DNA of 64,000 bases, from positions 22,880,001-22,944,000 of the forward strand of contig CM119372.1 of NCBI GenBank assembly GCA_051294905.1, in the 5' to 3' direction. Position numbers and translations under genes: made by a program. Numbering within the stretch: position 1 is the first letter of the stretch; the number at the start of each line of letters is the position of its first letter. Of the stretch, positions 1 to 57,629 are shown piece by piece. The stretch is from Botryllus schlosseri. Lineage: Eukaryota. A model generated the notes under the pieces. It did no database searches. It had not been told where the DNA came from and worked only from the letters and a program-made list of their open reading frames with translations.

Positions 1-531
1 GATAATTCATTAATCGGCGGAGTTGTAACTTCCTACAGTAACGACCAATTTGTAATCGATCATTACATTGTAAAATCATTTTTGTTATTTCTGCTTTTTG
101 CGAGAGGCCTATGGTATGCCGCTTGATGAAATTATTTGAGGCGGTGATCATAGATCCTCAATGACATAAAGAAATTACCAATACATGCTCGCATATCTAA
201 GTCAATTGTGGCCGTTTTGGCGAGATGGGGAATCGACTAGAATAGGAGATAAACTCCAAAAGACAATTCGATTTCACCACATTCGATGTAACATTAGTCG
301 AATGCCTCCCTACACGCGGGTCAGCAGTATTGGGAAAACACCTGTGCCCGGATATTCCGACTCGCCTTCCACGCATGTCTTGTGTTCGAGCGGTTTTGGT
401 ACGATTGGACTTATTTTGATGATTCTGTCAGCACTGTGCAACATTACTGTCCTATTACAATTTAGTTGAAGAGCTTCATGGAGGTACAGAACTTCAATAT
501 ACAATTGAATAGTATATTCATATTGAAATAA

Positions 532-575
532 ACCCGAATATTTTCGGCTGACACTCGTCAGGGGTAATCGTCAGC
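532..575 (-). ncRNA. Minimal type I hammerhead ribozyme motif (Penelope terminal repeat), copy 1
   Basis: Minus strand reads GCTGACG-att-ACCC-CTGACGA-G-TGTCAGC-C-GAAA-ATAT-TC-GGGT: core CUGANGA/GAAA/UH, stem I ACCC/GGGT, palindromic AATATT stem III. Confidence 0.8.
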
Positions 576-757
576 AACTAGTAGAGAATTGGAAAGAACA
601 TTGTATATCAACAATTGTATCACAAAATATGACGTCACCAGCATGAAAGAGAGAGCACCCAATGTACTATATTTAGGTGGTACACGAACTCCTTCCGTTG
701 ACATAGTTTGGGTTGCGATTGTTGATATACAACGTTCTTTCCAATTCTCTACTAGTT

Positions 758-801
758 CCTGACGATTATCCCTGACGAGTGTCAGCCGAAAATATTCGGG
801 T
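758..801 (+). ncRNA. Minimal type I hammerhead ribozyme motif, copy 2 (two substitutions)
   Basis: cctgacg-att-atcc-ctgacga-g-tgtcagc-c-gaaa-atat-tc-gggt; core intact, one G-U pair in stem I, one pseudoknot mismatch. Confidence 0.7.
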
Positions 802-3800
802 TTATTTCAATAGGAAGATACTATTCAATTACAATTTAGTTGTAGCGCATATTCTGACTTCTATTTATGGTGAGAGTCATAGAAAAGGTGACGGCAACAT
901 ATGCTTTGTCGCCATTGACCTCGCAGACAGCGCACTGAGCGTATAGTCGTCAAAGCGAAATAAGCTCATGGTGCACACATTGCGTTTCTCCTATGTTTCG
1001 ACTCTGCAAGACGCCGAAATTCGATCGTATTATCGCAAATGGCGACTTTCTCCGCATTTAAAGCAATTATAGCGTGACCGCACCGCTTTCTTAATTTCGG
1101 TCGAAACGCAATCGATTTGATCTAATTGGATCTTCGTTTGCGTGTTTCAAATATTTGGGCGAATGGCGTTGCCCTCGAAAATTTGCAGAAATACCGAGCC
1201 AGCAATTATATAATAAGTTTACTACACATAAATTCATAATGAGATTGATAGTTGAAAGTCCATTCTTAGTGAATCAAAATTCAAAACTTCTAACATCCAT
1301 CCTTACCTTGCTTAAATCAACTTTAAAGTGGGCACGGCTTATTGATCGCGTACTATAAACATGTGCGCATCAGGTCGTCTTGACTATGACACACGTTCGT
1401 AATTTAATTTCGGCCTGGATTGAGGGTTGGCGAAGAACATTAGTGCCAAATAACATTCTCAAAGGTGGGCGTTCCTCGGCTGAAAGCTGTCACGTTTTAC
1501 TTCCACGACTAGAACAACACAGCAGCTTTAAGGCCATTATCACCGACAGTCTGCGTTTACTCATCCGAAATCACATCCGGCTTGGTTATCAGTTCAATTA
1601 CGGCTGATCATATTCCGTAACCTTTTCGGACCGTATCAATAGGGTTTCTGGGCTAGATCCATATACCGCTAATGTTATTACGCCCCGTATCGCTACAGGT
1701 TGCATACACGAACTTCCGCCTTGGTCTAGTCTGGGATCCGTATAAAGCCACCGATGAATACACTCCTTGAAACATTCATCATGCGACATGTTTCGTCATC
1801 AGTTTATAAGAGCGCGTTACTAAATGGTCAAAAACACGGGTTTGGGAGATATCAAGCACCAGGTAGCATGTAACGTTGGACGCAGCGAGCTTCCGGCACC
1901 ATGTGGGATCTCGCCAGCATATGCTAGTAACTGCCATTTCTTGATAATCCGGTACCGGATTAGACTGAGATTTGCTCCATCAATTTGCCAGCACCGATAT
2001 TTTAAAATAATTTTGAACATACACACAATTATAATAAAGAATTAAAAAATTGGTCACCGTAAATACTATTTTATTGATAATCCAAATTTTGACGGCAATA
2101 ACTCCGCCTCCACTGGTTGGAATTGAACCAAATTTTGTGAACAACTGAACATCGTTTCTGTAGACAACCCACCACTTTCATGGGATGAACAGAAAATGTT
2201 GAAATTTTTTTCAATTTATTTTTAGGCCTATATAACAAATAGAAACTTTCTTCTCCTGTCGCAATGTGGCTACTGGCTGAAATTGAACCAAATTTGGTGT
2301 GTAGGCTTAAATTAGGTAACCTAATAATTTTATCAAGTAGCTAGTACAATTTGAGAAAACAAAGTCATTTTTGAACACCCCTAATGAAAACTGAACAAAG
2401 TACCATTCAAGCAATCGTTAAGTTGCCGATAAATAGCAGTTCGCAGTTGACCTCTGTTTCCAGCGATATTGTTCACGGGTGATCTAACACGAAATATACA
2501 TTGATTTGAATGCGTTTTACTCGTATTGTATTTGCAATACAGTCTACTTAACAGCAAATACATATCGCATCACTATTGCATTTAAGTGTATAGGCCTATT
2601 CGTTAAAGACGTTGTGCGTCACGTCATAATGGCAACACTTATTACAGCAGAATAGGCAATTTTTGTGTGCTAGAGCATTTTAAGTTTCAAGGCATCAGAA
2701 CTATTTTTGAAGGGGAAAGAAGCCAGTAGAAATATTGCAGTATATTTGCTAGCAGGATGTTTAACGGCAATGACAGTATGATGAGTTCACAACATAATAA
2801 CTTACAGTTATATGTGTTAGCACATAGGCCTATTGGAAATTTGCTATCGAAACCTTTGACCTGCCCATTTGATCTGCTAGCTACCAATGCAATAAATATA
2901 AATTTCTTTCACATAATCTCTGTATGTTAGAAATGTGGGTAATACGAATTCTCCGTGCCGTCGTCAATATATCATCAAAAGCTAATGTCGGGTGACCAAA
3001 CGTTGAATACATAGCACCCACCAGGAAATATCCACACTTGCTCAGAAAATGCGGGATCCGTGCGGGAGAATACTGTGTCTTCTGCTTTTATCGTAGTTTG
3101 ATTCCCGAGAAGCGATCCGTTGTGGGTTCGTGAATGAGCGACCATCGTTCGACCAATGCATCCATATTCCATTCTCTGTATCGAGGCGGACGATACTCCG
3201 GCAAATGTCGTATTCAACATACCGCTCATTGTGACGTACACTCAATTTTGTACAGGCGAAGTAATAACTAATCAGTCATCGCGGCGTGTCACTGTTGGTA
3301 GAAATCAGATTGAAGGGACGTGTTCAGTAGCCTCTTGTTTTCTTCAGTTAATATATCAGTAGGTAGGACCAAAACAATAGATATCTCCACCGGCGTATCC
3401 ACTACTGGAATCCAAGCGGCAAAACAATTTCAGCAACAAAGCGACTTAAAGAATCTATTATGACGACCCCTATTTTGCTAACATCAAACTTGGGTGCGGT
3501 AAAGGTGACATTCGTCCCTTTACACTAGGTTTCGCCAATGCGAAAGTTCGTTATATGGAGCAGACATTGGCCAATTACTGTATCAATGTAATAGATTACG
3601 ACTATGATTGCGATTACGTCTGAAACGCGGGATAGGGTTTACAAATACAGCAATGTCTAAAAGTTTTCGATTGCGATTCCAATTACATGGAAAAAACAAT
3701 GGCGATTTTATTGACGATTACATTCATTTTGATTCCTTGGATTTGATGCTGGCAATTATTCGAAGACAACATGATTATTAAAACGGCTAAGATGAGAGCG

Positions 3801-6587: not shown

Positions 6588-9542
6588 CAGTGTTCGGATC
6601 AAGTCACTACTTTCGAGTCACAAGTCATCTCGAGTCATTGCACATTTTGACTCGAGTCAAGTCAAGTCAATCGATTTTCGAAGGTGACTTGAGTCAAGTC
6701 AAGTCACTCGTTTTTTGGAGGTGACTCGAGTCAAGTCAAGTCAAGTCAAGTCGAGTCGAGTCACGAGTCAAGTCACAATTCATGTCAAATTGAATTTTCG
6801 AAGTATCAGTGACGGTTCAAAGTCGTTACATTTTGCTAGCTGTTTGAAAGACAGAAGGATTGATCATTTATCTTGAATCAAATAACGAATACAAAGTTTA
6901 ATATGCATGCAATAAGGCGTTGTATCGCTTACGAACACGTAGAAATGCAAATAAAATACGCGAGTAACTGTATAGCTGCATGTTACAGTCTGTTGTTAAT
7001 AGCCAATAGGATCGAATACGCAGCCTCGAGAAGTTGCAACGAATTGATATGGTACAATACACTACCCATCTACACATCTGTGAGAAAATTAACGCATAAA
7101 CTATATTCGCTCGATTTAACTCATACAAGAGAGTTGGTACAGGTGATCACAGCGCAATGTCAGCACTGAGGCCGTCTAAGAAACAGAGATACCTTGCTAT
7201 GAGATTAATCTACTGCTACTACGATAATCTAAGCCAGTGATTCCCAAGTGCGGCCCCCAGATGGCCTTCTTGCGGCCCCCAAAATATATTAGGAAATCGA
7301 TTTATGACAAAAATATATATATTTATAAAATACTCTTGCTTGGCTTGGCCTCTATAGTTTTTAATTATAGAATTGCAGGAAAGTTGTGAGTATAGACTGC
7401 TAACGTTACGTCACTGCTGTTTCAATGCATTGTGCCCTAACTTTCCAGTTGAACGGGCAGTAGCTATAGATATATAGGTATTGATAACTTTCAAAACCGG
7501 AGGAAAATCCTGAAAAAATGTAAATTTTTCCAACTTCGTGGTCGCTTGACTAAAAAAGAAAAAGGCTCAACTCCCGGAAAATGCAGTTTTTCTTTCACAT
7601 TAACAGGTGGTTGATTGAAAAAAGGGTCAACTTTCCGGTCCAGCTCCCGAAATAGTCGCCGTAGCGTTCCCACAGTGTTGACGTAATGTATATCAGTCGA
7701 ATTTGCCCCTATATGTAACCAAAATCCTCAAAAAAGAAGACAAAATCTCAAAAAGAAGACATCATCTTAAAAGAGGACGTATGGCAACCCTATGATAACT
7801 ATATGTGCAACACGTGACTCGCGGTTGAAAACGCCGAAATGCACACTGCTTCGTCGGCTAAAAGCAGCATAATTAGTAGTCCTATAGTCAGGGCCGTAGC
7901 TGTCGCACCCCAAACCCCCCAATTGAGGGGGGCCGAGCTTGAAGGGCGCACAAAATTATTTCGTGAGTTACCATAAATTATGGAGTATTTTTTTAAAATT
8001 TATGGAACTTTTTAAAAAAATTTTCGTGCCGTGCGCGATTTCAATTCGCCACATATCTTGATTTTTGGGCACTCTTCCCCAAGAAAAAATACGCAAGATT
8101 TATAGAAATGGGCATATCACCGTTGGCCATGACAGCACCACAACGCACCAAGACATATATAGTTTTAGGCCATGTAACATGTGACTCCATGAAGTGTGTC
8201 AGAACGATCGGCAGCTGACCAAAAACTTCGAAATACCAGAAAATTCGTTATATGTACAAACTACATATAGGTTTAATTGTCCATATAGGCGCCTAAATGA
8301 CTGGCGCCGAATGTTCTTGTCTTGGCAATCTGAACCTCACAAGACAAATATCATCCCGCAGGAAAGAAAGTTATATGCCAATGAAGAAATACCAATCTGA
8401 AATCGTGTGATCTTTCAGTTTAGTATAGGTTTGGGCAATTCTACATTTTTTATATAGCAGACAGGAGGTCACGAAATAACTTCATGTAAAGAAGTCATAC
8501 CTAGGGGTCCGCCCGCCCGAAGATGTTTAATTTTACGTGGTCTGCAGTTTCAAAAACACTTCTCACTCAGCTCTACCGGTTAATCTAATTACGTGGGCAA
8601 AGAGGACAACCATGCCATTCCCGATCTTATCCACCGTTTTTACATGAATTATCGAAATATTCGCGCGTCGCGCTGTCTCACTAAACAGTACAACATTAAT
8701 TTCGTTGCAAAAGCGAACAACGTGATGCGGGGTCAGTTTATCACCCTATGGGAGTCTGGGGTCCTGACGAAGTGCTGTTACAATCCTGCCAACGGGTATA
8801 CCCCCGGAGATGTTTAATTACTATTGAGGGGGCCCATACCTTTTAAAACACACCTCACTCAGCTCTACCGGTAAATCAGTTTACGTGAACAGAGACAGGA
8901 TGAAAATTGATAGCAATACATGCAATTCCCGATCATATTGACCGATTCAGTCATGAATCTAAAGAAATTTCTCGCGCTTAGCGCGTTTAGGCCAGGAGAG
9001 CTGATTCACTCCACGGACAGACACCCAATTCAGCAGATAAGTAGCGGTAAACAGTGTACAGTTTCGAAATCTCGTCAGGGCAATAAAACTACTCCGAAAT
9101 AGCCACGATGACTGCTTGGGTCCGTTTCATAGCCGTAGTATTCGTGCGGCCCCGACCGTACTCTGAAATTCTAAATTTGGCCCACACACCAAAAAAGTTT
9201 GGGAACCACTGATCTAAGCTGTGATCGTTTCGTTTGTGGTCAATTCATCTGTGATGTAACAATTGAGGATCAATGAAACTTACAATCATTGAATGGCATG
9301 GTTATTCTCACATGTGACACAGGCGTATCGCGATCGCGAACAATACGAACATACACAAAATACAGTGATTTAAATCGATTCCGTTTCCCGATGACTTGAA
9401 ATTGACTCGTAAATTTTGCTCCGAGTCCCGAGTCTCCGAGTCAAGTCAAGTCAAGTCATTTTTGCAAAGTGACTCGAGTCAAGTCAAGTCATACGAATAA
9501 GTTGACTCGAGTCAAGTCATGACTCGAGTCATCCCAACACTG
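6588..9542. mobile_element. hAT-type non-autonomous element with GAGTC/AAGTC subterminal repeats, interrupted by a nested element
   Basis: TIR cagtgtt / aacactg; diverged 8-bp TSD ccgtatta / ccgcattt; gactcgagtc and agtca arrays at both ends; same repeat type as 18029-18625. Confidence 0.7.
7235..9211. mobile_element. Composite non-autonomous hAT (Buster/Charlie-like) element
   Basis: TIR cagtgattcccaa / ttgggaaccactg; perfect TSD atctaagc (7227-7234, 9212-9219); reverse-orientation relative of 26776-30172. Confidence 0.9.
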
Positions 9543-23744: not shown

Positions 23745-25495
23745 CAGTGGTTCTTAACCTTTTTTCCTCCAGCGCCCCCTTTCAAAAATTATCGTGCTCT
23801 AGCGCCCCCCCCCCCAACCTCATATTGTAAGGAATGTAATAAAGACAGTGAGTAAGAGGGAGGGCCGTAACAGCACTTCGTCAACCCCCCTAAAACCGAT
23901 TGCCTTGCGCACCCATAGCGTGATAAACCAAACTTCTGAGGGCTTCGCCCCCAAGAACCCCGTAGCGTGATTTCGATGGTCAGCAAAGTTTGTGTGGCCT
24001 GGTCACCCTAGGTACCAAAATCTTCTATAATGCGTGAATGAAGAGGTGATAATTACATGTATAAGTCGCTATAAACTTTTTATCCTCTCAGCCCACGTAG
24101 TCAGATTTACCAGAAGCGCCAGGGCCGTAACAGCACTTCGTCAGCCCCCCCCCCAAAAAAATAACGTTGGTCTTGGGCCCCCCATCGGGGGATAAGTCAA
24201 ACTTCCGGGGGGCTTCGCCCCCAGACCCCCCTTCGGCTATCCGCTATTTACTGATACTAGTCATCTACATTGGGTGTCCATTTACTGATCCAGCTATTCT
24301 CGCCTAGACGCGCCAAGCGCGAAAAATTTCAATTATTAATGACTGAATTGGTCAATATGATCGGGAATTGCATGTATATTGATATCAATTTTTATCCTCT
24401 CTCTGCTCACGTAAACAGATTTACCGGTAGAGCTGAGTGATGTGTGATTGAAAAGGTAGGACCCCTCAATAATAATTATACATCTTCGGGCGTATACCCG
24501 TTGGCAGGAACGAAACGGCACTTCGTCAGGCCCCCCGAAAAAAATTGGGTCTTGGGCTCCCATAGGGTGATAAACCGACCGCCCCCCATCACGTTGTTCG
24601 CTTTTGCCACGAAATCAGCTGTACTGTTTAGCGAGCCAGTGCGAAGCGCAAAAACCTTCGACAATTCATGATAAGATCGGGAATTGCGTATATATTGCTA
24701 TCAATTTCTTGTCCTCTTCACTCACGTTACCAGATTTACCGGTAGAGCTGAGTGAGGTGCAATGTTCCCTCTAAGCTGCGTACATGCGCAGTGCTGACAC
24801 GGTCTCTGCGCACAGAAAATCTATGTTGCGCACAACGAATCCGAAATTATGACCTTTTTTAGTCGTTACGCACTGTCGTCCAAGGGTCTGCGCATTGAGT
24901 TGTTGAGTGTGCGCAGAGTCGTCAAAAGGTAGAGCAAACATTGTGAGGTGTCGTGGAAACTGTAGGGCCCGTAACTAATAATTAAACATATTCGGGCGGG
25001 CGAACCCGTTGGTATGACTTCGTTGCATGATGTTATTTCGTGACCTCCTGTCTGCTATATCAAAAAATATTGAGTCGCCCAACAGGGATATCGCCAGTTT
25101 TAGATATCCCTGTCGCCCAATCGTACTAAACTAAAAGACGCACACGATTTCAAATTGGTTATTCTTCACTGGCATATCATTTTCCCTGCCAGATGGAATT
25201 CGTCTCCTGAGGTTCAGATTGCCAAGACAGGAACATTCGGTGCCAGTCATTTAGGCGACCATGGACAATTAAACCTATATGTCTTTTGTAGGCTATATAG
25301 AACGAAGTTTTCGGTGTTAATTTGCTCTGAATACTCATTAAGGATATGTCCTACCACCACATCATCTACTGCGAAGCCATTTTTCTCAAGCGCCCCATAC
25401 CGCCCCCCTGAGCCCAGTGCCCCCTGAGTGTTTCCGCCCCCTTCAAAATCGCCAGCGCCCCTTTGGGGCGCTGGAGGCAAGGTTATGAACCACTG
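23745..25495. mobile_element. Composite non-autonomous hAT (Buster/Charlie-like) element
   Basis: TIR cagtggttcttaacc / ggttatgaaccactg; perfect TSD ttctaggc (23737-23744, 25496-25503). Confidence 0.9.
24760..24943. mobile_element. Small MITE nested in 23745-25495
   Basis: TIR caatgtt...ctcta / tagag...aacattg; duplicated (g)tgaggtg; the paralogous empty site is visible at ~29190-29215 (agctgagtgaggtgtcttggaaac). Confidence 0.8.
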
Positions 25496-28806: not shown

Positions 28807-31077
28807 CTATATATTGGTATCAATTTTCATGTTCTCTCTGCTCACGTAATCAGATTGACTGGTTGAGCCGAGTGATGCTGTGTTTAAAAAGGTAGGACCA
28901 CTCAATAATAATTAAACATCTTCGGGCGTATACCCGTTGGCAGGAACGAAACAGCACTTCGTCAGGCTCCCTAAAACACCTAGGTTTTGATCTCCCATAG
29001 GGTGATGAACCGACCCCCCGTGCCGTTGTTCGCTTCTGCCACGAAATCAGGATCCCCGTTTAGTGAGCCAGCGTGGAGCGCGAAAATTTTCGATAATTCA
29101 AAATGAAATAGGTCAATAAGATCGGGAATTGCGTATATATTGCTATCAATTACTTGTCCTCTCTGCTTACGTAATCAGATTTACCGGTAGAGCTGAGTGA
29201 GGTGTCTTGGAAACTGTAGGGCCCGTAAATAATAATTAAACATATTCGGACGGGCGAACCCGTTGGTACGACTTCGTTAGATGATGTTATTTGTTATTTC
29301 GCGACCTCCAGTCTGCTATATCAAAAAATATAGAATCGCCCAAACGTACTAAACTAAAAGATGCACACGATTTCAAATTGGTAGTTCTTCACTGGCATAT
29401 ACTTCTTCCCTGCGGGATGGTAGCCTATTTGTCTCGTGACGTTCAGATTGCCAAGACAGGAACATTCGGCGCCAGTCATTTAGGCGCCTATGGTCAATTA
29501 TACCTATATGTATTTTGAATATACATAACGAAGTTTTCGGTCAGCGTAAGAGCAGTCCTTTTCGGCCAAGGTTTTCTCGCTGCCGATCGTTCTGGCACAT
29601 TTCTTGGAGTCGCATGTTACATGGCCTAAAACTTTATATGTCTTCGTGCGTCGTGGCGCGGTAATGGCCAACGCCGATATGCCCTCTTCTATAAATCTTG
29701 CGCATTTTATCTTGGTCGAAGAGTACCCAATAATTAAGGTACTTGGAAACTTGAAATCACGCGCAGCGCGAAAAATCTTTGAAAAAGTTGCATAAAATTT
29801 CATAAAATAATAAAATAATTTATGCTAATTCACTAAATAATTTTGGCCCCCCTTCGAGCTTGCTCCCCCCAATTGGGAGGCTTGGGGTGCGGCAGTTACG
29901 GTCCTGTCAATATACCTATATCTATAGGTACTGCCCGTTCAACTGGAAAGTTAGGGCACATTGCATTGCAACAGCAGTGACGTAATCTTAGCAGTCTACT
30001 CACAACTTTCCTGCAATCCTAATTGAAAACTCCAGACTCCAAGCCAAGCAAGAGTATTTTATAAATGTATTTTTTTTCTTCATAAATCGATTTCTCAATA
30101 TTTTTGTGGGGGCCGCAAGAAGGCTAGCTGGGGGCCGCATGCGGCCCTCAGGGCCGCGGTTGGGAATCACTGGTTTACACAGTATCCGATACAACTTCTC
30201 CGTATTGCTCTTCGACTAAACTACAGGTGCTATAATATGGGGGAGGGTGCCACACCAAGTTATTTCCTAAAACGTGCTGTTCGAGTAAACAGAGGATTAG
30301 TATCGCATTTCGATATATCGATACTATCATTTTCATCCCATCATGCGGACGAACGCTTGTGCTGTCGAAAATTGGATACCTCCTGGTATTCATCAATATG
30401 AATCAAGCCCTGGACCTTTCGCATAGCTCAGTTTGCAGCTTTTGACAATCAATGCGAACGAATTACGATCGTTTTCACAACTACTTACTAACTTGAGTAG
30501 ATTTAAAGTCAGTCAATTCTACTTCTACTTCAAGTAATTTTAGGTCGCTTATAGAAGAAGTACTTCTACTCTTACTTGAGTGGATTTTTCCGTCGCTACT
30601 CATATTTCTACATGAGTAGCTTTCTTGACTACTTTTACCACCTCTGCATTTAAAACAAATGGTGTTTAAAACACTTTGTTTAAAACATGTTTTAAACAGT
30701 GTCTTTAACAAAAGCCTTTTTAAGAAGTTGTAAAACTATGCCATAATTGTGTAAATAAACTCCCAAAAACATGTTGCATGAGCCTATACGGAGAATTACC
30801 ATACCACCCGCTATAGCCAACGTATATCGATATGGGATGGTCGGAACCCTCAAAATGGTCGATTCAACAGCAATAGTACAGATATTTCGTCAAAGGAGCT
30901 TAATTTACCCTATATTTTCAATTGTCAATATCAATCCACTATGACGTCACAACTGAATATTCGTGACGTCATGGCTTTAAAAACAAAACAAAACAAAAAA
31001 AACATGTTTTAAACAAGGGCCTTGTTTTAAACATGTATATGTTTTAAATCGATTTTTGTTTCAAATGTAACCCCAAG

Positions 31078-33263: not shown

Positions 33264-34481
33264 TTAGTCGCGTCGAAGCATTATTGTCGCCCGGTGCAAA
33301 CCTTCAATCTCTTCATTCAAATTACGGTATTCGGCGAAACACAGCTTCAATAATCCGATCATAAATAGCGAGTGGTATACTGCGTTGTGGTTGAATTCCG
33401 GCGGTAACGGACACGGTACGTTCTCAGAAGCTCCAAAGCCGCAGCGGAATGACAGAAAGTACTGGGTAAGACCAGATGCAATCATAACCATTAATCCGAC
33501 ACATCGTAAAGTACAAGCTCTTAGCCTTCTACTCTGTAGGCAATCATCTTGTGTGCGCGGCTGACTTTTGAGATCTTTCACACTACTTCCCGGCGAAGCG
33601 CTGCCGGTGTCGGAAGAGCTCAAGAGATCGCACTGCGAAATGTTGGCGACCGGGTCCGTGTTTCGAGTGTCGGTTCTCATCTGCATGCCGTCCACGAGAA
33701 TTAGGAATGCATTAACTGTGTAAATCAGCAAAGATATTCCTATGAGGTACACCATCGCCGAAAGAGTCCACATCTCTTCAATGCCTTCCAGTAGTCCCGG
33801 ATTTTGCATAGAGCGTACCTGGTTAATGGCGGTTGATACTGCGGTGCACGCTTGAAGCACGCAAAACAATAATAACAACACGAAACAAACGTTTTCCATC
33901 ACACGCATTCGCTTTTTCACGAAGACAAAAACAGTTTTCAAATTGGACTTATATCTTCTGTTATCAGTTGGTATTTCAATAGCTCTTTGAGGGTGGTATG
34001 TGCAAGAAACCAGAACGTGCAAAGAGGTCAGCGCTAAAAATACTGCGAATGCGGTCGCAAAAAGCTTCGCCACGTGCCACGCAAAATACAGTGGTATGAC
34101 TTGAATTAAGAGGTCCGCGTCTGCTTCTTGCCCGACACCGGGAACTTGAACATGGTTAATGAAATGGTGCGCCACGCCGGCGATAAAATGCATGAATCCG
34201 CACGCGAATAGCGCCCCGGTAATGGAATTTTTGATATCGATAATGTTCTGGTGGCGTGACATTCTCTGTAGTTTTGTTTCTTGTCGGTCATCGCCCGGAA
34301 CTTTAGAAGGTGATGTTTCCCGGCCGATGTTAAGATGCTTATCGCTTCGATTTCCATCTATACGTCGGAATATTTCAGCGATCACGAAAATCACGATAGC
34401 GTTTATGTAGTCTGTGACGTAAGTGGCGGTTGCAGAGTCCAGTCCCAGGATGTAGGTTGACGAAGATGACGCGTTGACCAT
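33264..34481 (-). CDS. Single-exon ~405-aa multi-pass membrane protein, CREST-superfamily/DUF6962-like putative metal-dependent membrane hydrolase
   Basis: By far the longest ORF in the window; first ATG at 34481 (MVNASSS...); about 7 hydrophobic segments; motifs TYVTDY, AGVAHHF and FNHNAVYH. The family assignment comes from recalled motifs, not a search. Confidence 0.75.
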   Translation of the reverse strand: MVNASSSSTYILGLDSATATYVTDYINAIVIFVIAEIFRRIDGNRSDKHLNIGRETSPSKVPGDDRQETKLQRMSRHQNIIDIKNSITGALFACGFMHFIAGVAHHFINHVQVPGVGQEADADLLIQVIPLYFAWHVAKLFATAFAVFLALTSLHVLVSCTYHPQRAIEIPTDNRRYKSNLKTVFVFVKKRMRVMENVCFVLLLLFCVLQACTAVSTAINQVRSMQNPGLLEGIEEMWTLSAMVYLIGISLLIYTVNAFLILVDGMQMRTDTRNTDPVANISQCDLLSSSDTGSASPGSSVKDLKSQPRTQDDCLQSRRLRACTLRCVGLMVMIASGLTQYFLSFRCGFGASENVPCPLPPEFNHNAVYHSLFMIGLLKLCFAEYRNLNEEIEGLHRATIMLRRD

Positions 34482-34740
34482 ACTCGAAGGCAGATGAACT
34501 ACTGATATCTGCAAACAACTCGCGGATTAGTTACGTCGCAGCGTGCGCAAATTTCGGAAATGTCACACCATACATTATCTGCTTCTATTCAAAATTCGTA
34601 TTACTCGATTTTATCGTTTCAATATAACGTACATCGTACCGGATAATCTGATCAAGAGTCGAATATTGAGTCGAATTCATGTGTAATAAGGGACTTGTCG
34701 GAATCGTGAGTTATACATCAAAACATTGGTATGTTACTAC

Positions 34741-38158: not shown

Positions 38159-38654
38159 TCATGTCCCCAGATTTATCAGAACACGTGCGTCACGCGATGT
38201 GAAAAGCTCACCCTTAACTCATCCACTTAAGATTGATGCTGATCGATCAAAGGCAATTAATTCTGCCATCGGCAAACATCTGTTGGATAATCCGATTTGT
38301 GCGAATAATTATCGAGACGACCGATTTCGAATCGTAGGTCGAGGCCGTTCACAATTCCATTTGTGTGCCTTGGAATCAACTTTTATCAAAATACACCAAC
38401 CAAAACTCTGTCAACAAAAGGAGTTCGTGTATCACCTAAAAATAGTACATTGAACGCTCTCTCATTCGAAATTTCATGCTGGTGACGTCATATTTTGTGA
38501 TACGATTGTTGATATACAATGTTCTTTCCAATTCTCTACTAGTTGCTGACGATTACCCCTGACGAGTGTCAGCCGAAAATATTCGGGTTCATTTCAATAT
38601 GAATATACTATTTAATTGTATATTGAAGTTCTGTACCTCCAAGAAGCTCTTCAA
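38159..38654 (+). mobile_element. 5'-truncated Penelope-like element: GIY-YIG endonuclease C-terminus plus terminal repeat
   Basis: ORF 38199-38453 SAIGKHLLDN...FRIVGRG...LCALESTFIKIHQPKLCQQ matches the SA..H..., LE..FI...P.L pattern of PLE GIY-YIG domains; 11-bp TSD atatcaaggta (38148-38158, 38655-38665). Confidence 0.9.
38545..38588 (+). ncRNA. Minimal type I hammerhead ribozyme motif, copy 3
   Basis: gctgacgattacccctgacgagtgtcagccgaaaatattcgggt, in sense orientation ~90 nt downstream of the PLE stop codon. Confidence 0.82.
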
Positions 38655-40307
38655 ATATCAAGGTAACCTCATGGATCAGTAAGGTTCGCATAACGAACAC
38701 GACCGTGAACCGAACGTTCACACCATCCCAACAGTAATCATATTCATTTGCCTTTGAATTTTATTTTTTCATACAACATTATACCACCAACTAATGAAAT
38801 GAGGCACACGTAAAGGGGTTTTAATTTATGATTGTATCTCTTATTGAAGTTGACGTGAAAGTTGCTGAATGCCCTATTGGAAAGTAGGCCTATTAGACGA
38901 CTGTCACGTATGCAGTTGTTATGTTCCTCATGTAATCCGATTTACTTATTGGGTTTTACGGCTGAGCGAAAATTCGAAAATAGATATGTTCTTATTAGAA
39001 AAGTGACTGCTGCGGAGTATTTATGTATGCTTACATGTTTTGCAATCATATGCCGCACGACGTTTCTCTTTCAATGCATTACCAAAGAGACGGAGTCAGA
39101 TTAATCGGTATTGTCGAATAAATGGGACGAAGGGACAGTAATATAGATGCAAACAAAGTAAGTGAGACATTTAGTATTCAGTACGCCAATGTGTGACTTT
39201 GAATTTCGAAGAACCAATTGGAAGAGTCAAGAGAAATATCACTAGTACTGAAGCTTCATTACTGTGCATGAGTAATAGTTGTCGGATATATCCTCCGTTT
39301 GGGTTTTTCATGGCATTTACTTTTGTGATTAATAACGGGAATTTTTCAGATCGCCCGGAAAGCAATTCGCGGTATGCGCAGTTATTCGCTATAAATAATT
39401 GAGCATATCTTCAGGGAACGGGGTGGCTCTCAATTTTCATGTTTAGAGTGAACCATTGCGTTTCCTTTCCTATTAGAACAGGCATCATCTACCATCCCAA
39501 ACAACTGTGCAGTATGACATGGTCAGGAGTGTATTATGATCTTTATAACGGAGTCCTTTGTGATTATAGATTTCCCATAAAAGTATACACTATAAAGCGC
39601 GTAATGTCTGGATATTACATATCAAATTGATGCATTCACACTTATATATTTCAGATTCATTTGGTATGTAATATAGTGGTGACATTGCTCAGGAACGTAA
39701 GTGACGTGACAAATTCTGTGCCCGCTTGGATATTTCATGTGTAACATTACGATATCAGTTTTGTTCATTTCATCTCTATGTGCCTATTGGGTGATCATCA
39801 ACTGAGCGACAACTGTCTCGAGTGTCAGTGTATTTGATTGACAAATGTCAATGACGTACATTTCAGTGACAGACATTCGGCTGTCGGAACCATCAATCAA
39901 CTGGATTTTCAGGATCTACGATTGGTTAAGTTGAGTTAGAACAGTGGTACCTACCGGTCTCCCAGGTGTGGCGTGGGCCCGCAGCTTCCTCTGGAACGTC
40001 GTCTCTGGATTCCACCCCAGAGCCCTCGGCAATTTTCTTATCGTAATTGTCGCAAGAATCTTTTGTCGTTGATTTGAATTATGACATCATAGAGGTGCAA
40101 AGAATAATCTACCGAAGCAATTGTAAGCGCGGTAAAGTGACGGTAACGCTTTTGCCATTATGCTTTAGCATCGCACAGTTTGATCGACTTTAATCTAACT
40201 AGAAACCGATTTTGGCAATCAGTGAGCGACGAGAGCTCACTTTACTTCCGAGCGGGGCCTACGATATCGTAAGGATCGCTACTGATGCGTGTCGTTCGAC
40301 ATCCTCC

Positions 40308-48564: not shown

Positions 48565-48977
48565 TTTAGATAGTCTATACACAGACACGCGCAGATGTGG
48601 AGTTGTTACAATTTGTAATGTCGCAAGTTCCTTATTCAAGAGCCAAATCAATATTCCTCATGTCAATAAATTTCGTCTAAATAAATTCACCAATTTTCCA
48701 CAAATTGTGGCACCGACAGTGGAAGTTATTCAATTCAAAAATATGTTGTGAGGACTGAGGAGTGTGTTTTAGGGAGCTGAAATATTCTCAGGCAGAATTG
48801 GTCGTTATCACTTACGTTACCAACAAACGTATTGCCATGGTTCGACAGTTTCCGGATTTTCTGAAATCTATTCAATTAGAATTAAAATCCCATTGGAACG
48901 CTAATTTTACGGAAGAGTCTTCGGTACCGATAAGGGTGTGTTGATATGTCTAGCAAATTTGAATATGGGTAAAATGG

Positions 48978-49050
48978 CATCTCCGCCGGGACTCGAACCC
49001 GGAACCTCTGGATTAGAAGTCCAGCGCGCTATCCATTGCGCTACGGAGAC
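48978..49050 (-). tRNA. tRNA-Arg(TCT), intronless, copy 1
   Basis: GTCTCCGTAGCGCAATGGATAGCGCGCTGGACTTCTAATCCAGAGGTTCCGGGTTCGAGTCCCGGCGGAGATG; 73 nt, intact cloverleaf, followed by CCA-TTTT. Confidence 0.96.
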
Positions 49051-50660: not shown

Positions 50661-50733
50661 CATCTCCGCCGGGACTCGAACCCGGAACCTCTGGATTAGA
50701 AGTCCAGCGCGCTATCCATTGCGCTACGGAGAC
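50661..50733 (-). tRNA. tRNA-Arg(TCT), intronless, copy 2
   Basis: Identical 73-nt sequence to 48978-49050; followed by TTATTTT terminator. Confidence 0.96.
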
Positions 50734-51658
50734 CCTCGTGCGCCATACTGATACCGGTTGATTTCACATCGGAACCCAAAGCACATTTAAATAAACACGC
50801 CTGTCCTCGTCATCTAAAACTTACATATGTTCAGTTCGAATTGCATGAAAACACATCGCTCTATCCTGCAAGTGTGTCGATCTTGTCGGACCTCAAATGT
50901 GGAGCAGTATCTTGCCGGCTATCCGACAGTCGTCGAGCATGTTCACATTCAAGACGTAATACAGGCGGTTTCTATTCTGAATGAACTCGATACCGCCTAC
51001 CGACACATGCCACATTCATTTTCGTCGCTTGTCCTTCGGACTGTTGGGTTTTGGAAGAACGTGGATCTGTAAAAATCATGTGGCAACTTGTATTGAGCGC
51101 ACCGCGACAACACGAAGCTTGATTACTGCCGGTTTTATAACAAAGAGTTACCATGAAATGGAATCAGGAAAAAAGGACATTTTTTACAAATCCTAAAAGT
51201 CAGATTGCCGGACTAGAAAACTGCTGATTCTAAAATTTGTACTGGAAATCTTGTTGTGTTGACTTAAAAAAGGTTATTTTTCGAGTCCTACCCTCGAACG
51301 ATCCGCGTCATTCATGGCGTTTTCTGGCTGTCAAAGCTATAAAAGAGGACGGATGTCCATAAAGGAGGACATTTAGGCGTACTCGGAGGACATTTCCGGA
51401 AAAAGGAGGACAAATCCCCCTAAAGGAGGACATAAAACAGCACACCAGTTTTAACAGATAAAATATGGCTTAGGCGACGAATCTTTTGAAGTGATGTGAA
51501 GTGTCTTATCATTATAGTGATGTTACAAAGTGTACTTTGAGTCTATGCAGTTATTTATTTTAGGTCCATCTCTGTTACAACAATATCAACATTTGAAGAG
51601 CTTCTTGGAGGTACAGAACTTCAATATACAATTAAATAGTATATTCATATTGAAATGA

Positions 51659-51702
51659 ACCCGAATATTTTCGGCTGACACTCGTCAGGGGTAATCGTCA
51701 GC
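51659..51702 (-). ncRNA. Minimal type I hammerhead ribozyme motif, copy 4
   Basis: Same 44-nt motif as 38545-38588, on the minus strand. Confidence 0.8.
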
Positions 51703-51779
51703 AACTAGTAGAGAATTGGAAAGAACATTGTATATCAACATTGTTGATATACAATGTTCTTTCCAATTCTCTACTAGTT

Positions 51780-51823
51780 GCTGACGATTACCCCTGACGA
51801 GTGTCAGCCGAAAATATTCGGGT
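51780..51823 (+). ncRNA. Minimal type I hammerhead ribozyme motif, copy 5
   Basis: Same 44-nt motif as 38545-38588. Confidence 0.8.
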
Positions 51824-51914
51824 TCATTTCAATATGAATATACTATTTAATAATATCAACATTGTGTACCTTGGTCAATTCTTTATTTCCTGCTGCACAG
51901 ATCACACTGTCAAC

Positions 51915-56725: not shown

Positions 56726-57400
56726 GTCTCTGTGGCGCAATCGGTTAGCGCATATAGTGTTCTATATGGTGTCGCCACAAGCAAATCTCACGCCTCAGTG
56801 AAATTGTATCACGTCACAATTTCCATTTGGCTACAGGCAATTTGACGGTCTTGACCGGTTTGCCGAGCATTAAATTTGGTAAAACAGGTATCAATCGAAA
56901 GCTGACTCTGCACTGATTACGAAAATATAAATTTTATTCCGCTCGTGGCCCTGGAACTCCCACGATCAGCCTCCAATTTTTCATTGTTATGGAGATTGGC
57001 ATTGGGACGCAACAATGATGTTTGGCGAAACGAGAGAGTAGCTCAGGAGAAAAAGAGCCAGGCAGCATTGTTCAGCATTGTTGCGTCCCAATGCCAATCT
57101 CCATAACAATGAAAAATTCGAGGCTGATTGTGGGAGTTCCAGGGTCACGAGCGGAATAAAATTTATATTTTCGTAATCAGTGCAGAGTCAGCTTTCGATT
57201 GATACCCGTTTTACCAAATTTAATGCTCGGCAAGCCGGTCAAAAATTACCGTCAAATTGCCTGTAGCCAAATGGAAATTGTGACGTGATACAATTTCACT
57301 GAGGCGTGATATTTGCCTGTGTCGACACCATAGAGGACACTATGGTTAGCGCGGTCGCCTGTTAACCGAAGGGTTGGTGGTTCGAGCCCACCCAGGGACG
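56726..57400 (+). pseudogene. tRNA-Asn(GTT) gene split by a transposon (5' part 56726-56751, 3' part 57353-57400)
   Basis: gtctctgtggcgcaatcggttagcgc + ggtcgcctgttaaccgaagggttggtggttcgagcccacccagggacg rejoins to a typical animal tRNA-Asn with a few substitutions. Confidence 0.92.
56752..57343. mobile_element. Foldback-type element (~270-bp inverted arms, ~50-bp spacer)
   Basis: 56752-57020 is nearly the reverse complement of 57073-57343; flanked by duplicated ggttagcgc (56743-56751, 57344-57352). Confidence 0.9.
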
Positions 57401-57419
57401 CACCTTTAATTTTCTGTTC

Positions 57420-57629
57420 ATGACCACGAGTGGAATAAAATTTTTATTTTCAAAATCAGTACAGCGGTAGCTTTCGATTGATACCCGTTTTATCGGACTT
57501 AAATGCTCGACAAGCCGGTCAAAAATTACCGTCAAATTGCCTTTGACCAAATGGAAAGTGTGACGAAAACCAATTTCACTGAGCCGTGAGATTTACTTGT
57601 GTCCACTCCACACCATATAGGACACTATG
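57420..57629. mobile_element. Solo, more diverged arm of the same foldback family
   Basis: Direct repeat of 57145-57344, ending in the same ggacactatg terminus. Confidence 0.85.

Follow-up and report, generated by a model that had tools for sequence, protein, structure and literature searches.

A putative hammerhead ribozyme with a pseudoknot in place of helix II in a Penelope-like retroelement of Botryllus schlosseri

A 64,000-nt stretch of the Botryllus schlosseri genome (GenBank assembly GCA_051294905.1, contig CM119372.1, positions 22,880,001 to 22,944,000 of the forward strand; hereinafter, the window) contains five copies of a 44-nt motif, one of them at positions 38545..38588 of the window, which, judging from its sequence, is likely to be a hammerhead ribozyme of a Penelope-like element (PLE) in which helix II has been replaced by a pseudoknot. 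Taken jointly with this assignment, the repeat that bears the motif is probably a young and very abundant PLE with a unit of 2,692 nt. Comparison of this element, denoted family A below, with sister families in the same genome and with relatives encoded in metagenomes shows, through covariation, that stem I, the pseudoknot and the palindrome that takes the place of stem III are all under selection.

Architecture of the motif

A preliminary description of the window had listed five copies of the motif, and all five were found, four of them with no mismatches and the copy at 758-801 (+) with two; none of 100 dinucleotide-preserving shuffles matched the 44-mer. The complete hammerhead core in type I order that had been read in it is likewise there: at 38545-38588 every core position is occupied as expected, namely C3 U4 G5 A6 N7 G8 A9, G12 A13 A14, the A15.1-U16.1 pair and H17. 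The parts of this copy are as follows.

38545..38551, + strand: 5' strand of the pseudoknot, GCUGACG, complementary to loop II; five of the seven pairs show two-sided changes across families
between 38551 and 38555, + strand: spacer AUU, read from the sequence
38555..38558, + strand: 5' strand of stem I, ACCC, pairing with 38585-38588; covariation in three of the four pairs, with 98.7% paired cells among the 19 representatives
38559..38565, + strand: core box CUGACGA (C3-A9); C3-G8, U3-A8 and U3.G8 forms occur in related lineages
38566..38574, + strand: stem II, the single pair G10.1 (38566)-C11.1 (38574), closing a 7-nt loop
38567..38573, + strand: loop II, UGUCAGC, the 3' strand of the pseudoknot, complementary to the upstream heptamer
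38575..38578, + strand: GAAA, read from the sequence
38578..38583, + strand: palindrome AAUAUU (stem III, formable only between two copies); palindromic in other lineages too
38584, + strand: C17, with the predicted cut after this position, at the UUC/GGGU junction
38585..38588, + strand: 3' strand of stem I, GGGU, pairing with ACCC

Because just 9 nt separate CUGACGA from GAAA, stem II can consist of at most one pair, G10.1-C11.1; there is no stem II hairpin of two or more pairs but a single pair around the 7-nt loop. Loop II can form six Watson-Crick pairs and one G-U pair with the upstream heptamer. No intramolecular helix is possible for stem III, which is represented by a palindrome of 6-10 nt with compensatory changes at its centre across lineages. 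From this arrangement we infer that RNA would be cleaved after C38584.

As had been anticipated, standard annotation misses the motif: Rfam yielded no hammerhead at the gathering score in the whole window, nor at E values up to 10 on the 181 nt of 38480-38660. A scan for generic minimal type I hammerheads, covering the window and the first 33 loci, likewise detected none beyond family A.

The Penelope-like element that carries the motif

The placement of the motif in a terminal repeat of Penelope proved correct insofar as it lies in the spacer between open reading frames (ORFs), the pseudo-long terminal repeat (pseudo-LTR), of a PLE, but no copy in the window is part of a whole element. All five are short 5'-truncated 3' fragments, and four of them make two head-to-head pairs, a known feature of PLEs (PMC8557442).

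38160..38658, + strand: 5'-truncated 3' fragment of family A comprising the ORF end, the hammerhead spacer and a long tail, delineated by comparison with the unit of locus L032
38451..38453, + strand: TGA stop codon of the PLE ORF remnant, with the same sequence as the ORF end at locus L004
38599..38601, + strand: ATG of the next unit's ORF, within the tail and 14 nt 3' of the predicted cut
463..715, - strand: piece of family A, truncated on the 5' side, containing the hammerhead at 532-575; 91-97% identical to the unit
702..838, + strand: 5'-truncated family A fragment with the hammerhead at 758-801 (two mismatches), head to head with 463..715 (inverted pair I5)
51588..51740, - strand: 5'-truncated family A fragment with the hammerhead at 51659-51702 (inverted pair I7, arms 98% complementary and 1 nt apart)
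51740..51871, + strand: piece of family A, truncated on the 5' side, containing the hammerhead at 51780-51823 and forming a head-to-head pair with 51588..51740

The fragment at 38160..38658 is 100% identical to positions 2381-2841 of the L032 reference unit and continues into the first 187 nt of the next unit. At locus L032 itself, the order is hammerhead, ORF (860 aa), hammerhead, with 2,692 nt between the two hammerheads, and the ORF starts with MNILFNCILKFCTSKK directly 3' of the hammerhead, 14 nt separating the predicted cut from the ATG of the next unit. The spacer between tandem ORFs, about 190 nt long, holds the hammerhead, with 106 nt between the stop codon and the core at locus L004. 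The tandem unit of a sister family, family B, is of similar length (2,778 nt).

The ORF located 5' of the hammerhead matches RVT_1 with E values of 1.7e-8 and 7.8e-9, the latter match scoring above the curated cutoff, and contains a YVDD motif as well as, towards its C-terminus, a GIY-YIG-like motif visible by eye, VVYEYRCHCDCGYVGRT. The Pfam GIY-YIG model gives the family A ORF an E value of 0.022 and 15.5 bits, below the cutoff of 22.6, and PF01541 was recorded for 2 of 120 homologues among the matches listed. Public databases hold 842 homologues of the ORF at E values of at most 1e-10, the best being 64% identical, and one of them is annotated as an octocoral reverse transcriptase. The assignment to the PLEs follows from the combination of the RVT_1 match, the YVDD and GIY-YIG-like motifs, the tandem units, the inverted 5'-truncated copies and the tails of 30-40 nt.

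Family A is extremely abundant. The 29-nt core, with up to two mismatches, has 5,023 and 4,922 matches (at least 9,945) in the 495.5-Mb assembly and none in the reversed control, and the full 44-mer occurs 3,084 and 2,984 times, most copies of the family being identical. Among 35 oriented copies, homology ends abruptly on the 3' side, 57-105 nt past the start of the core, and raggedly on the 5' side, which is the mark of 5'-truncated reverse-transcribed copies. For 40 distinct copies of family A, the position of the 3' end was counted from the cut site: 26 copies end at +24..+38, 12 at +64..+74 and one at +47, and one copy extends into the next unit. The distance between the two clusters, 36-40 nt, agrees with what is known of the Anolis PLE, namely an optional tail of 30-40 nt and two internal sites at which reverse transcription starts (PMC11167929).

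Sister families and metagenome relatives

Because the uniformity of a young family such as A is uninformative with regard to selection, we searched the genome for the bare architecture, using patterns made up of a single anchor letter, 14 unconstrained bases, CTGANGA, G, 7 unconstrained bases, C and GAAA, and with the loop forced to differ from that of family A. These patterns gave 575 and 503 matches in the genome compared with 13 and 6 in the reversed controls. Two families stand out.

Family B: 244 copies; pseudoknot ACUAAC/GUUAGU; stem I GCUA/UAGC; palindrome AAGCUU; U at position 17
Family D: 209 copies; pseudoknot ACUGGC/GCCAGU; stem I ACUG/CAGU; palindrome AAGCUU; C at position 17

Smaller groups have the pseudoknots UCUGGC/GCCAGA and ACUGGU/ACCAGU, with stem I GCUC/GAGC. 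In families B and D, the hammerhead occupies the same position relative to their own ORFs as in family A, with the start codon of family B 19 nt past the predicted cut. The proteins of A are 56-59% identical to those of B or D, and those of B and D are 75% identical to each other, indicating that A, B and D are separate lineages rather than decayed copies. At locus L049 (1516-1651, the same as L078 1406-1541) a family B hammerhead is followed on the same strand, 110 nt later, by a family D hammerhead, which looks like one PLE inserted beside the tail of another. One further group with the loop GTGGACT (L036 and L041) matches the architecture but is devoid of stem I and the palindrome, and we took it to be a chance match.

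A search for cores with U3-A8 yielded 692 matches in the genome and 57 in controls. Judged from 35-nt rows spanning the core region and the upstream strand, the matches listed include a family with the pseudoknot CGUGCC/GGCACG (eight exact copies) and another with UGUGCC/GGCACA. A third U3-A8 family, with GGUGCC upstream, regularly has as its neighbor, at a distance of 240-280 nt, a second hammerhead-like motif in inverted orientation, in which 3 nt are duplicated before the core (for example, C1:1187432 and C1:1187671; C2:2242969 and C2:2243246), an arrangement that suggests a composite or non-autonomous element.

Protein alignment to metagenome contigs identified 80 loci encoding relatives, 34-68% identical, of which 27 were usable in that they include either the end of the ORF followed by 260 nt or more, or its start preceded by 90 nt or more. 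The strict motif is present in 8 of these 27 loci. In 18 others, the motif occupies the position predicted for it; most of these have the core UUGAAGA (U3.G8), two have another single core mismatch and one has a weak stem I. In the one remaining locus of the 27 holding the expected region the motif was not found. The pseudoknots of the metagenome relatives include UCCAGUG/CGCUGGA, accompanied by the palindrome AACGUU; GACGCG/UGCGUC, with the register shifted by one; UCUGAC/GUCAGA, which is seen with C3-G8, U3-A8 or U3.G8 cores; and UCCGACG/UGUCGGA, with a 6-nt spacer and a 10-nt palindrome. The most distant relative, with 43% protein identity, has ACAAUU/AAUUGU, an A10.1-U11.1 pair and a 6-nt loop. 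The pairing is kept in lineages whose spacers differ in length (3-6 nt). In A, B, D, the U3-A8 families and most metagenome relatives, 9 nt separate the core box from GAAA, in L114 8 nt, and the palindrome of other lineages is AAUAUU, AAGCUU, AACGUU, AAAAGCUUUU or AUAUAUAU.

The U3.G8 core UUGAAGA occurs in the spacer after the ORF at L101, L112, L120, L124, L127, L135, L136, L143, L148-L152, L156 and L158, and the same lineage also includes C3-G8 (L098) and U3-A8 (L113, L134, L145) forms, so that U3.G8 looks like the wobble intermediate of the known covariation between positions 3 and 8. In some metagenome relatives, the start codon directly follows stem I. At L098 (289-291), and likewise at L110, L111 and L133, C11.1 is replaced by U, so that positions 10.1 and 11.1 still pair, as G-U, and the ribozyme acquires an internal AUG; at L098 this AUG is in frame with the ORF, and cleavage there would part the start codon from the ORF.

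Covariation of the helices

Two sets of sequences were compared. The first comprises all 54 distinct 44-mers in the loci, including truncated copies, the GTGGACT chance group and loop mutants selected by the patterns; the second consists of 19 representatives, drawn from the families of the Botryllus genome and the metagenome copies, with the GTGGACT group left out.

All 54 44-mers: paired cells 81.5%; shuffled 72.3% (0 of 500 reaching the observed value); slid partner 23-36%; covariation 0.318, shuffled 0.164
19 representatives: paired cells 91.2%; shuffled 75.6%; slid partner at most 40.6%; covariation 0.502, shuffled 0.200

Two-sided changes affect five of the seven pseudoknot pairs, three of the four pairs of stem I and two of the three pairs of the palindrome in the 54-row set, and again five of the seven pseudoknot pairs among the representatives. 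Paired cells in stem I amount to 82.9% in the larger set and 98.7% in the smaller one. The covariation analysis that the preliminary description had called for, run on the families of the same genome and the metagenome relatives, thus reveals compensatory changes in stem I, the pseudoknot and the palindrome alike, and both the proposed stem I and the stem III reduced to a palindrome covary among diverged PLE lineages. The pseudoknot, originally described as having seven base pairs, needs to be revised in one respect: the pairing of loop II with the upstream strand covaries across PLE lineages, but the seventh (G-U) pair is unpaired in 10 of the 19 representatives, so that six pairs make up the conserved helix and the remaining base of the loop serves as a linker.

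The calculated energy of the duplex between the upstream strand and the loop is -5.5 to -10.1 kcal/mol, and it is part of the minimum-energy fold of the monomer in five of the six families. The dimer folds of B and D contain the intermolecular palindrome helix.

We also considered the possibility that the upstream strand is a decoy copy of the core box, given that GCUGACGA repeats CUGACGA in family A and loop II can also pair with the core. As a general explanation, this was rejected because B, D and the U3-A8 families retain the upstream/loop pairing with sequences that do not resemble their own cores.

Proposed fold and alternative explanations

In the fold that we propose, the 6-bp helix would stack on G10.1-C11.1 as a split helix II, with the single linker base crossing the groove, as in an H-type pseudoknot, and the spacer of 3-6 nt would tie the pseudoknot helix to stem I. 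The pseudoknot would take over the role of the hairpin II that is missing and also that of the loop-loop contact by which stems I and II are set side by side. Because stem III is only a 6-nt palindrome, two copies would have to pair, completing two active sites; by analogy with the published PLE hammerheads, the partner copies could belong to a tandem transcript or to two RNAs, perhaps held together by the protein of the element. Cutting may be slow or conditional, perhaps protein-dependent, and its likely role would be the trimming of multi-unit transcripts. The ribozyme does not appear to be the maker of the reverse-transcription template because the template was uncut in every insertion examined.

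A broader proposition, which we regard as possible rather than probable, is that a whole PLE clade, with proteins down to about 43% identity and from several source organisms, rebuilt a lost helix II from loop II and the strand upstream of stem I. If so, this would be a topological rearrangement of a ribozyme that is invisible to Rfam and to the published stem-loop descriptors, PLE hammerheads would possess a tertiary clamp, and the PLE lineages with nothing but an orphan 'HHR_core', such as some Naiads, might be explained.

Several observations count against the interpretation of the motif as an active pseudoknotted hammerhead, and these concern the fate of the RNA, the energetics, the exceptions among families and the sampling. 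All 40 insertions examined keep the uncut motif and a tail of 24-74 nt past the cut site, and accordingly each was copied from RNA uncut at this hammerhead. No sizeable class of copies starting at the cut site was found, a weak negative given that the patterns used (46 and 274 matches, mostly decayed hammerheads, with no clean denominator) excluded the canonical G at position -10. In one bulk RNA-seq run (X23), of which about 6% was read, no position, the predicted cut site included, qualified as one with many molecule starts or ends. The depth in this run reaches about 150-200 (about 200 at the motif itself), in both read directions, solely over the approximately 200 nt that are abundant in the genome; it is 0 over the ORF, and 96% of the reads continue into unlike sequence, so these look like fragments embedded in other transcripts. 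A U3.G8 pair, such as that carried by most of the metagenome relatives, should, on the basis of mutagenesis work, weaken catalysis. In the minimum-energy fold of the family A monomer, the core pairs with loop II in one hairpin and GAAA pairs with the cut site in another, both inactive, and stem I by itself contributes just -2.1 to +0.6 kcal/mol. The upstream pairing also has its exceptions: in the U3-A8 family with GGUGCC, represented by at least five exact and at least five near copies, only four of six pairs form with the loop GGAAACC; two more U3-A8 groups have unrelated upstream sequence; and four copies of the family B core (C1:39623149, C2:11662062, C2:18116705 and C3:3818731) share an unrelated upstream sequence that does not pair. 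G10.1 and C11.1 were preset in the patterns used on the Botryllus genome, and their conservation there is not evidence. Finally, the 19 representatives were picked after the data had been seen, and the metagenome contigs come from a handful of projects and may therefore stand for few host species.

As a separate observation from the same RNA-seq run, 23 reads start matching at position 6595 of L032, 3 nt past the predicted cut, and are preceded by heterogeneous sequence (agreement 0.54); they probably derive from related families that have the ORF start, though not the ribozyme, in common with this element.

The lack of a cleavage signature in the RNA-seq reads and the uncut insertion templates would also agree with a helix between the upstream strand and loop II that is selected but stands outside the active ribozyme, be it as an off-state conformer enclosing the 5' strand of stem I and the core or as a protein-bound hairpin. 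Indeed, in nested folds of five of the six families, this helix is a hairpin around the 5' strand of stem I and the core, with stem I unformed, and the PLE hammerhead of Anolis cleaves only with protein (PMC11167929). We nevertheless consider such a role unlikely. Without the helix the motif has no helix II, and yet the core, stem I and the palindrome are kept, the latter two covarying; the dimensions (six pairs, a 1-nt linker and a spacer of 3-6 nt) fit a pseudoknot that coexists with stem I; and one active hammerhead, whose stem II is a single pair, relies on a 6-bp pseudoknot of this kind (PMC3088659). The proximity of the ATG, which is located 4-19 nt downstream or even within the motif (14 nt past the predicted cut in A, 19 nt in B, and in some metagenome relatives either directly after stem I or as the in-frame AUG made by U11.1), raises the question of whether the motif is kept for a function other than cutting, namely as a structured leader that aids translation or as an element for ligation or circularisation, and a 2026 paper describes ribozymes used for translation initiation in RNA viruses (PMC13725137). 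However, the conserved features are exactly the catalytic ones of the hammerhead, that is, the core, H17 and the A15.1-U16.1 pair, which makes this explanation quite improbable.

The two other alternatives carry little weight. That the motif is a decaying relic, its uniformity reflecting a recent burst of family A, would be in line with the identity of most family A copies, such that conservation within the family says nothing, and with the success of Naiad PLEs, which thrive without canonical hammerheads (PMC8557442); we consider it very improbable in view of an architecture with compensatory changes in all helices across lineages of 43-75% protein identity. Mere chance resemblance to a hammerhead could be invoked because the Rfam models return no score, but all core positions are present, at the known hammerhead site of PLEs, and the architecture patterns match 575 and 503 times compared with 13 and 6 times in reversed sequence, so that the likelihood of coincidence is close to nil. 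Thus, a hammerhead ribozyme with a pseudoknot in place of helix II is the interpretation that we favor.

Other features of the window

Two tRNA-Arg(TCT) genes, at 48975-49050 (-) and 50661-50733 (-), lie 1,683 nt apart within a 104-nt direct repeat (93% identical), and the head-to-head PLE pair at 51588-51871 adjoins this repeat. A repeat family of about 1 kb that is unrelated to the PLE is present at 24375-25288 and 28810-29517 and, inverted, at 8079-8918, with segments 77-94% identical; no hammerhead was seen in it by eye. The region 56754-57610 is a nest of inverted and direct repeats, including two arms of 170 nt, 56851-57020 and 57073-57242, that are 96% complementary and separated by 52 nt. 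With 420 codons from stop to stop, 33264-34526 (-) is the longest open frame of the window; neither this frame nor any other of the five window ORFs of 150 aa or more has a Pfam match.

Comparison with known hammerheads

The hammerheads of PLEs, their dimer logic and their poor activity in vitro are already known (PMC4209133; PMC6765202), and in print these ribozymes are described as minimal, without tertiary contacts and with very low activity in vitro. The Botryllus motif shares with the forms reported by Cervera and De la Pena (2014, PMC4209133) the location in the PLE pseudo-LTR, the type I topology, a stem I of 4-5 bp and the G10.1-C11.1 pair, as well as a stem III that is only a palindrome implying a dimer and the presence of thousands of dispersed copies, many in inverted pairs. 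In the published consensus, however, helix II is a 6-8-bp hairpin, and positions 9 and 10.1 are separated by an additional base that is unpaired (PMC4209133), unlike the Botryllus motif, in which helix II is a single pair and only 9 nt lie between the core box and GAAA. A 2020 review characterizes PLE hammerheads as variants lacking helix III or tertiary loop-loop interactions (PMC7761336), a description from which the Botryllus motif departs in that a covarying pseudoknot is present.

A close parallel in terms of the PLE itself is Poseidon of Anolis carolinensis (Frangieh et al. 2024, PMC11167929), where the hammerhead is also located at the junction of the pseudo-LTR and the ORF, a tail of 30-40 nt is found, the template is uncut and no public RNA-seq read ends at the cut site. 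The two elements differ in that the Anolis ORF begins inside the ribozyme, the cleavage of which needs protein, whereas the ORF of Botryllus family A begins 14 nt past the predicted cut.

Pseudoknots are common in hammerheads generally. One type II example, in which stem II is a single pair and the pseudoknot is 6 bp long, is fast, and the pseudoknot is essential for this speed: mutations in it kill the activity and compensatory ones rescue it (PMC3088659). As in this hammerhead of Perreault et al. (2011, PMC3088659), a helix of about 6 bp joins the region of the stem II loop to the stem I side in Botryllus, and stem II can shrink to one pair; by the measure of a contact of that type, four or more covarying pairs that connect the loop of stem II with the side of stem I, the Botryllus motif has six conserved pairs, with double changes in five of the seven columns. 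The example of Perreault et al. is metagenomic, of type II and has a normal stem III, unlike the Botryllus motif, which is of type I, with the free 5' flank of an open stem I as the partner, the whole of loop II consumed and stem III intermolecular. The non-circularly permuted hammerheads of Eckert et al. (2023, PMC10085705) are also similar in having a linker of about 3 nt that joins the sides of stem I and stem II and a pseudoknotted fold, but in contrast to their SGC, CSG and GCS types, the block order in Botryllus is that of an ordinary type I hammerhead, and displacement is limited to the part of the helix II 5' strand that lies beyond G10.1.

Craig et al. described core-only motifs in Naiads, with a spacer of 7-17 nt, that fit no descriptor (PMC8557442). 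In two nematode Naiads from the supplement of that paper, inspection by eye indicates that the sequence following CUGAYGAG could pair with a stretch immediately upstream of the core box and that CGAAAC follows some 40-50 nt later, so that the nematode Naiad motif may be another hammerhead with a displaced strand.

A search of full-text literature retrieved no paper on a pseudoknotted PLE hammerhead; it did not extend to Lunse et al. (2017) or to the figures in the supplement of Cervera (2014), either of which may bear on novelty. PLE hammerheads, pseudoknotted hammerheads and one hammerhead with a 1-bp stem II have already been published, and it is their combination that is new. This combination gives a concrete and testable reason why constructs without the upstream strand would be inactive, supplies a descriptor for ribozymes that current tools miss, with at least 6,000 full motifs in this genome, and provides one more case from nature that illustrates the extent to which the scaffold of the hammerhead can be rearranged.

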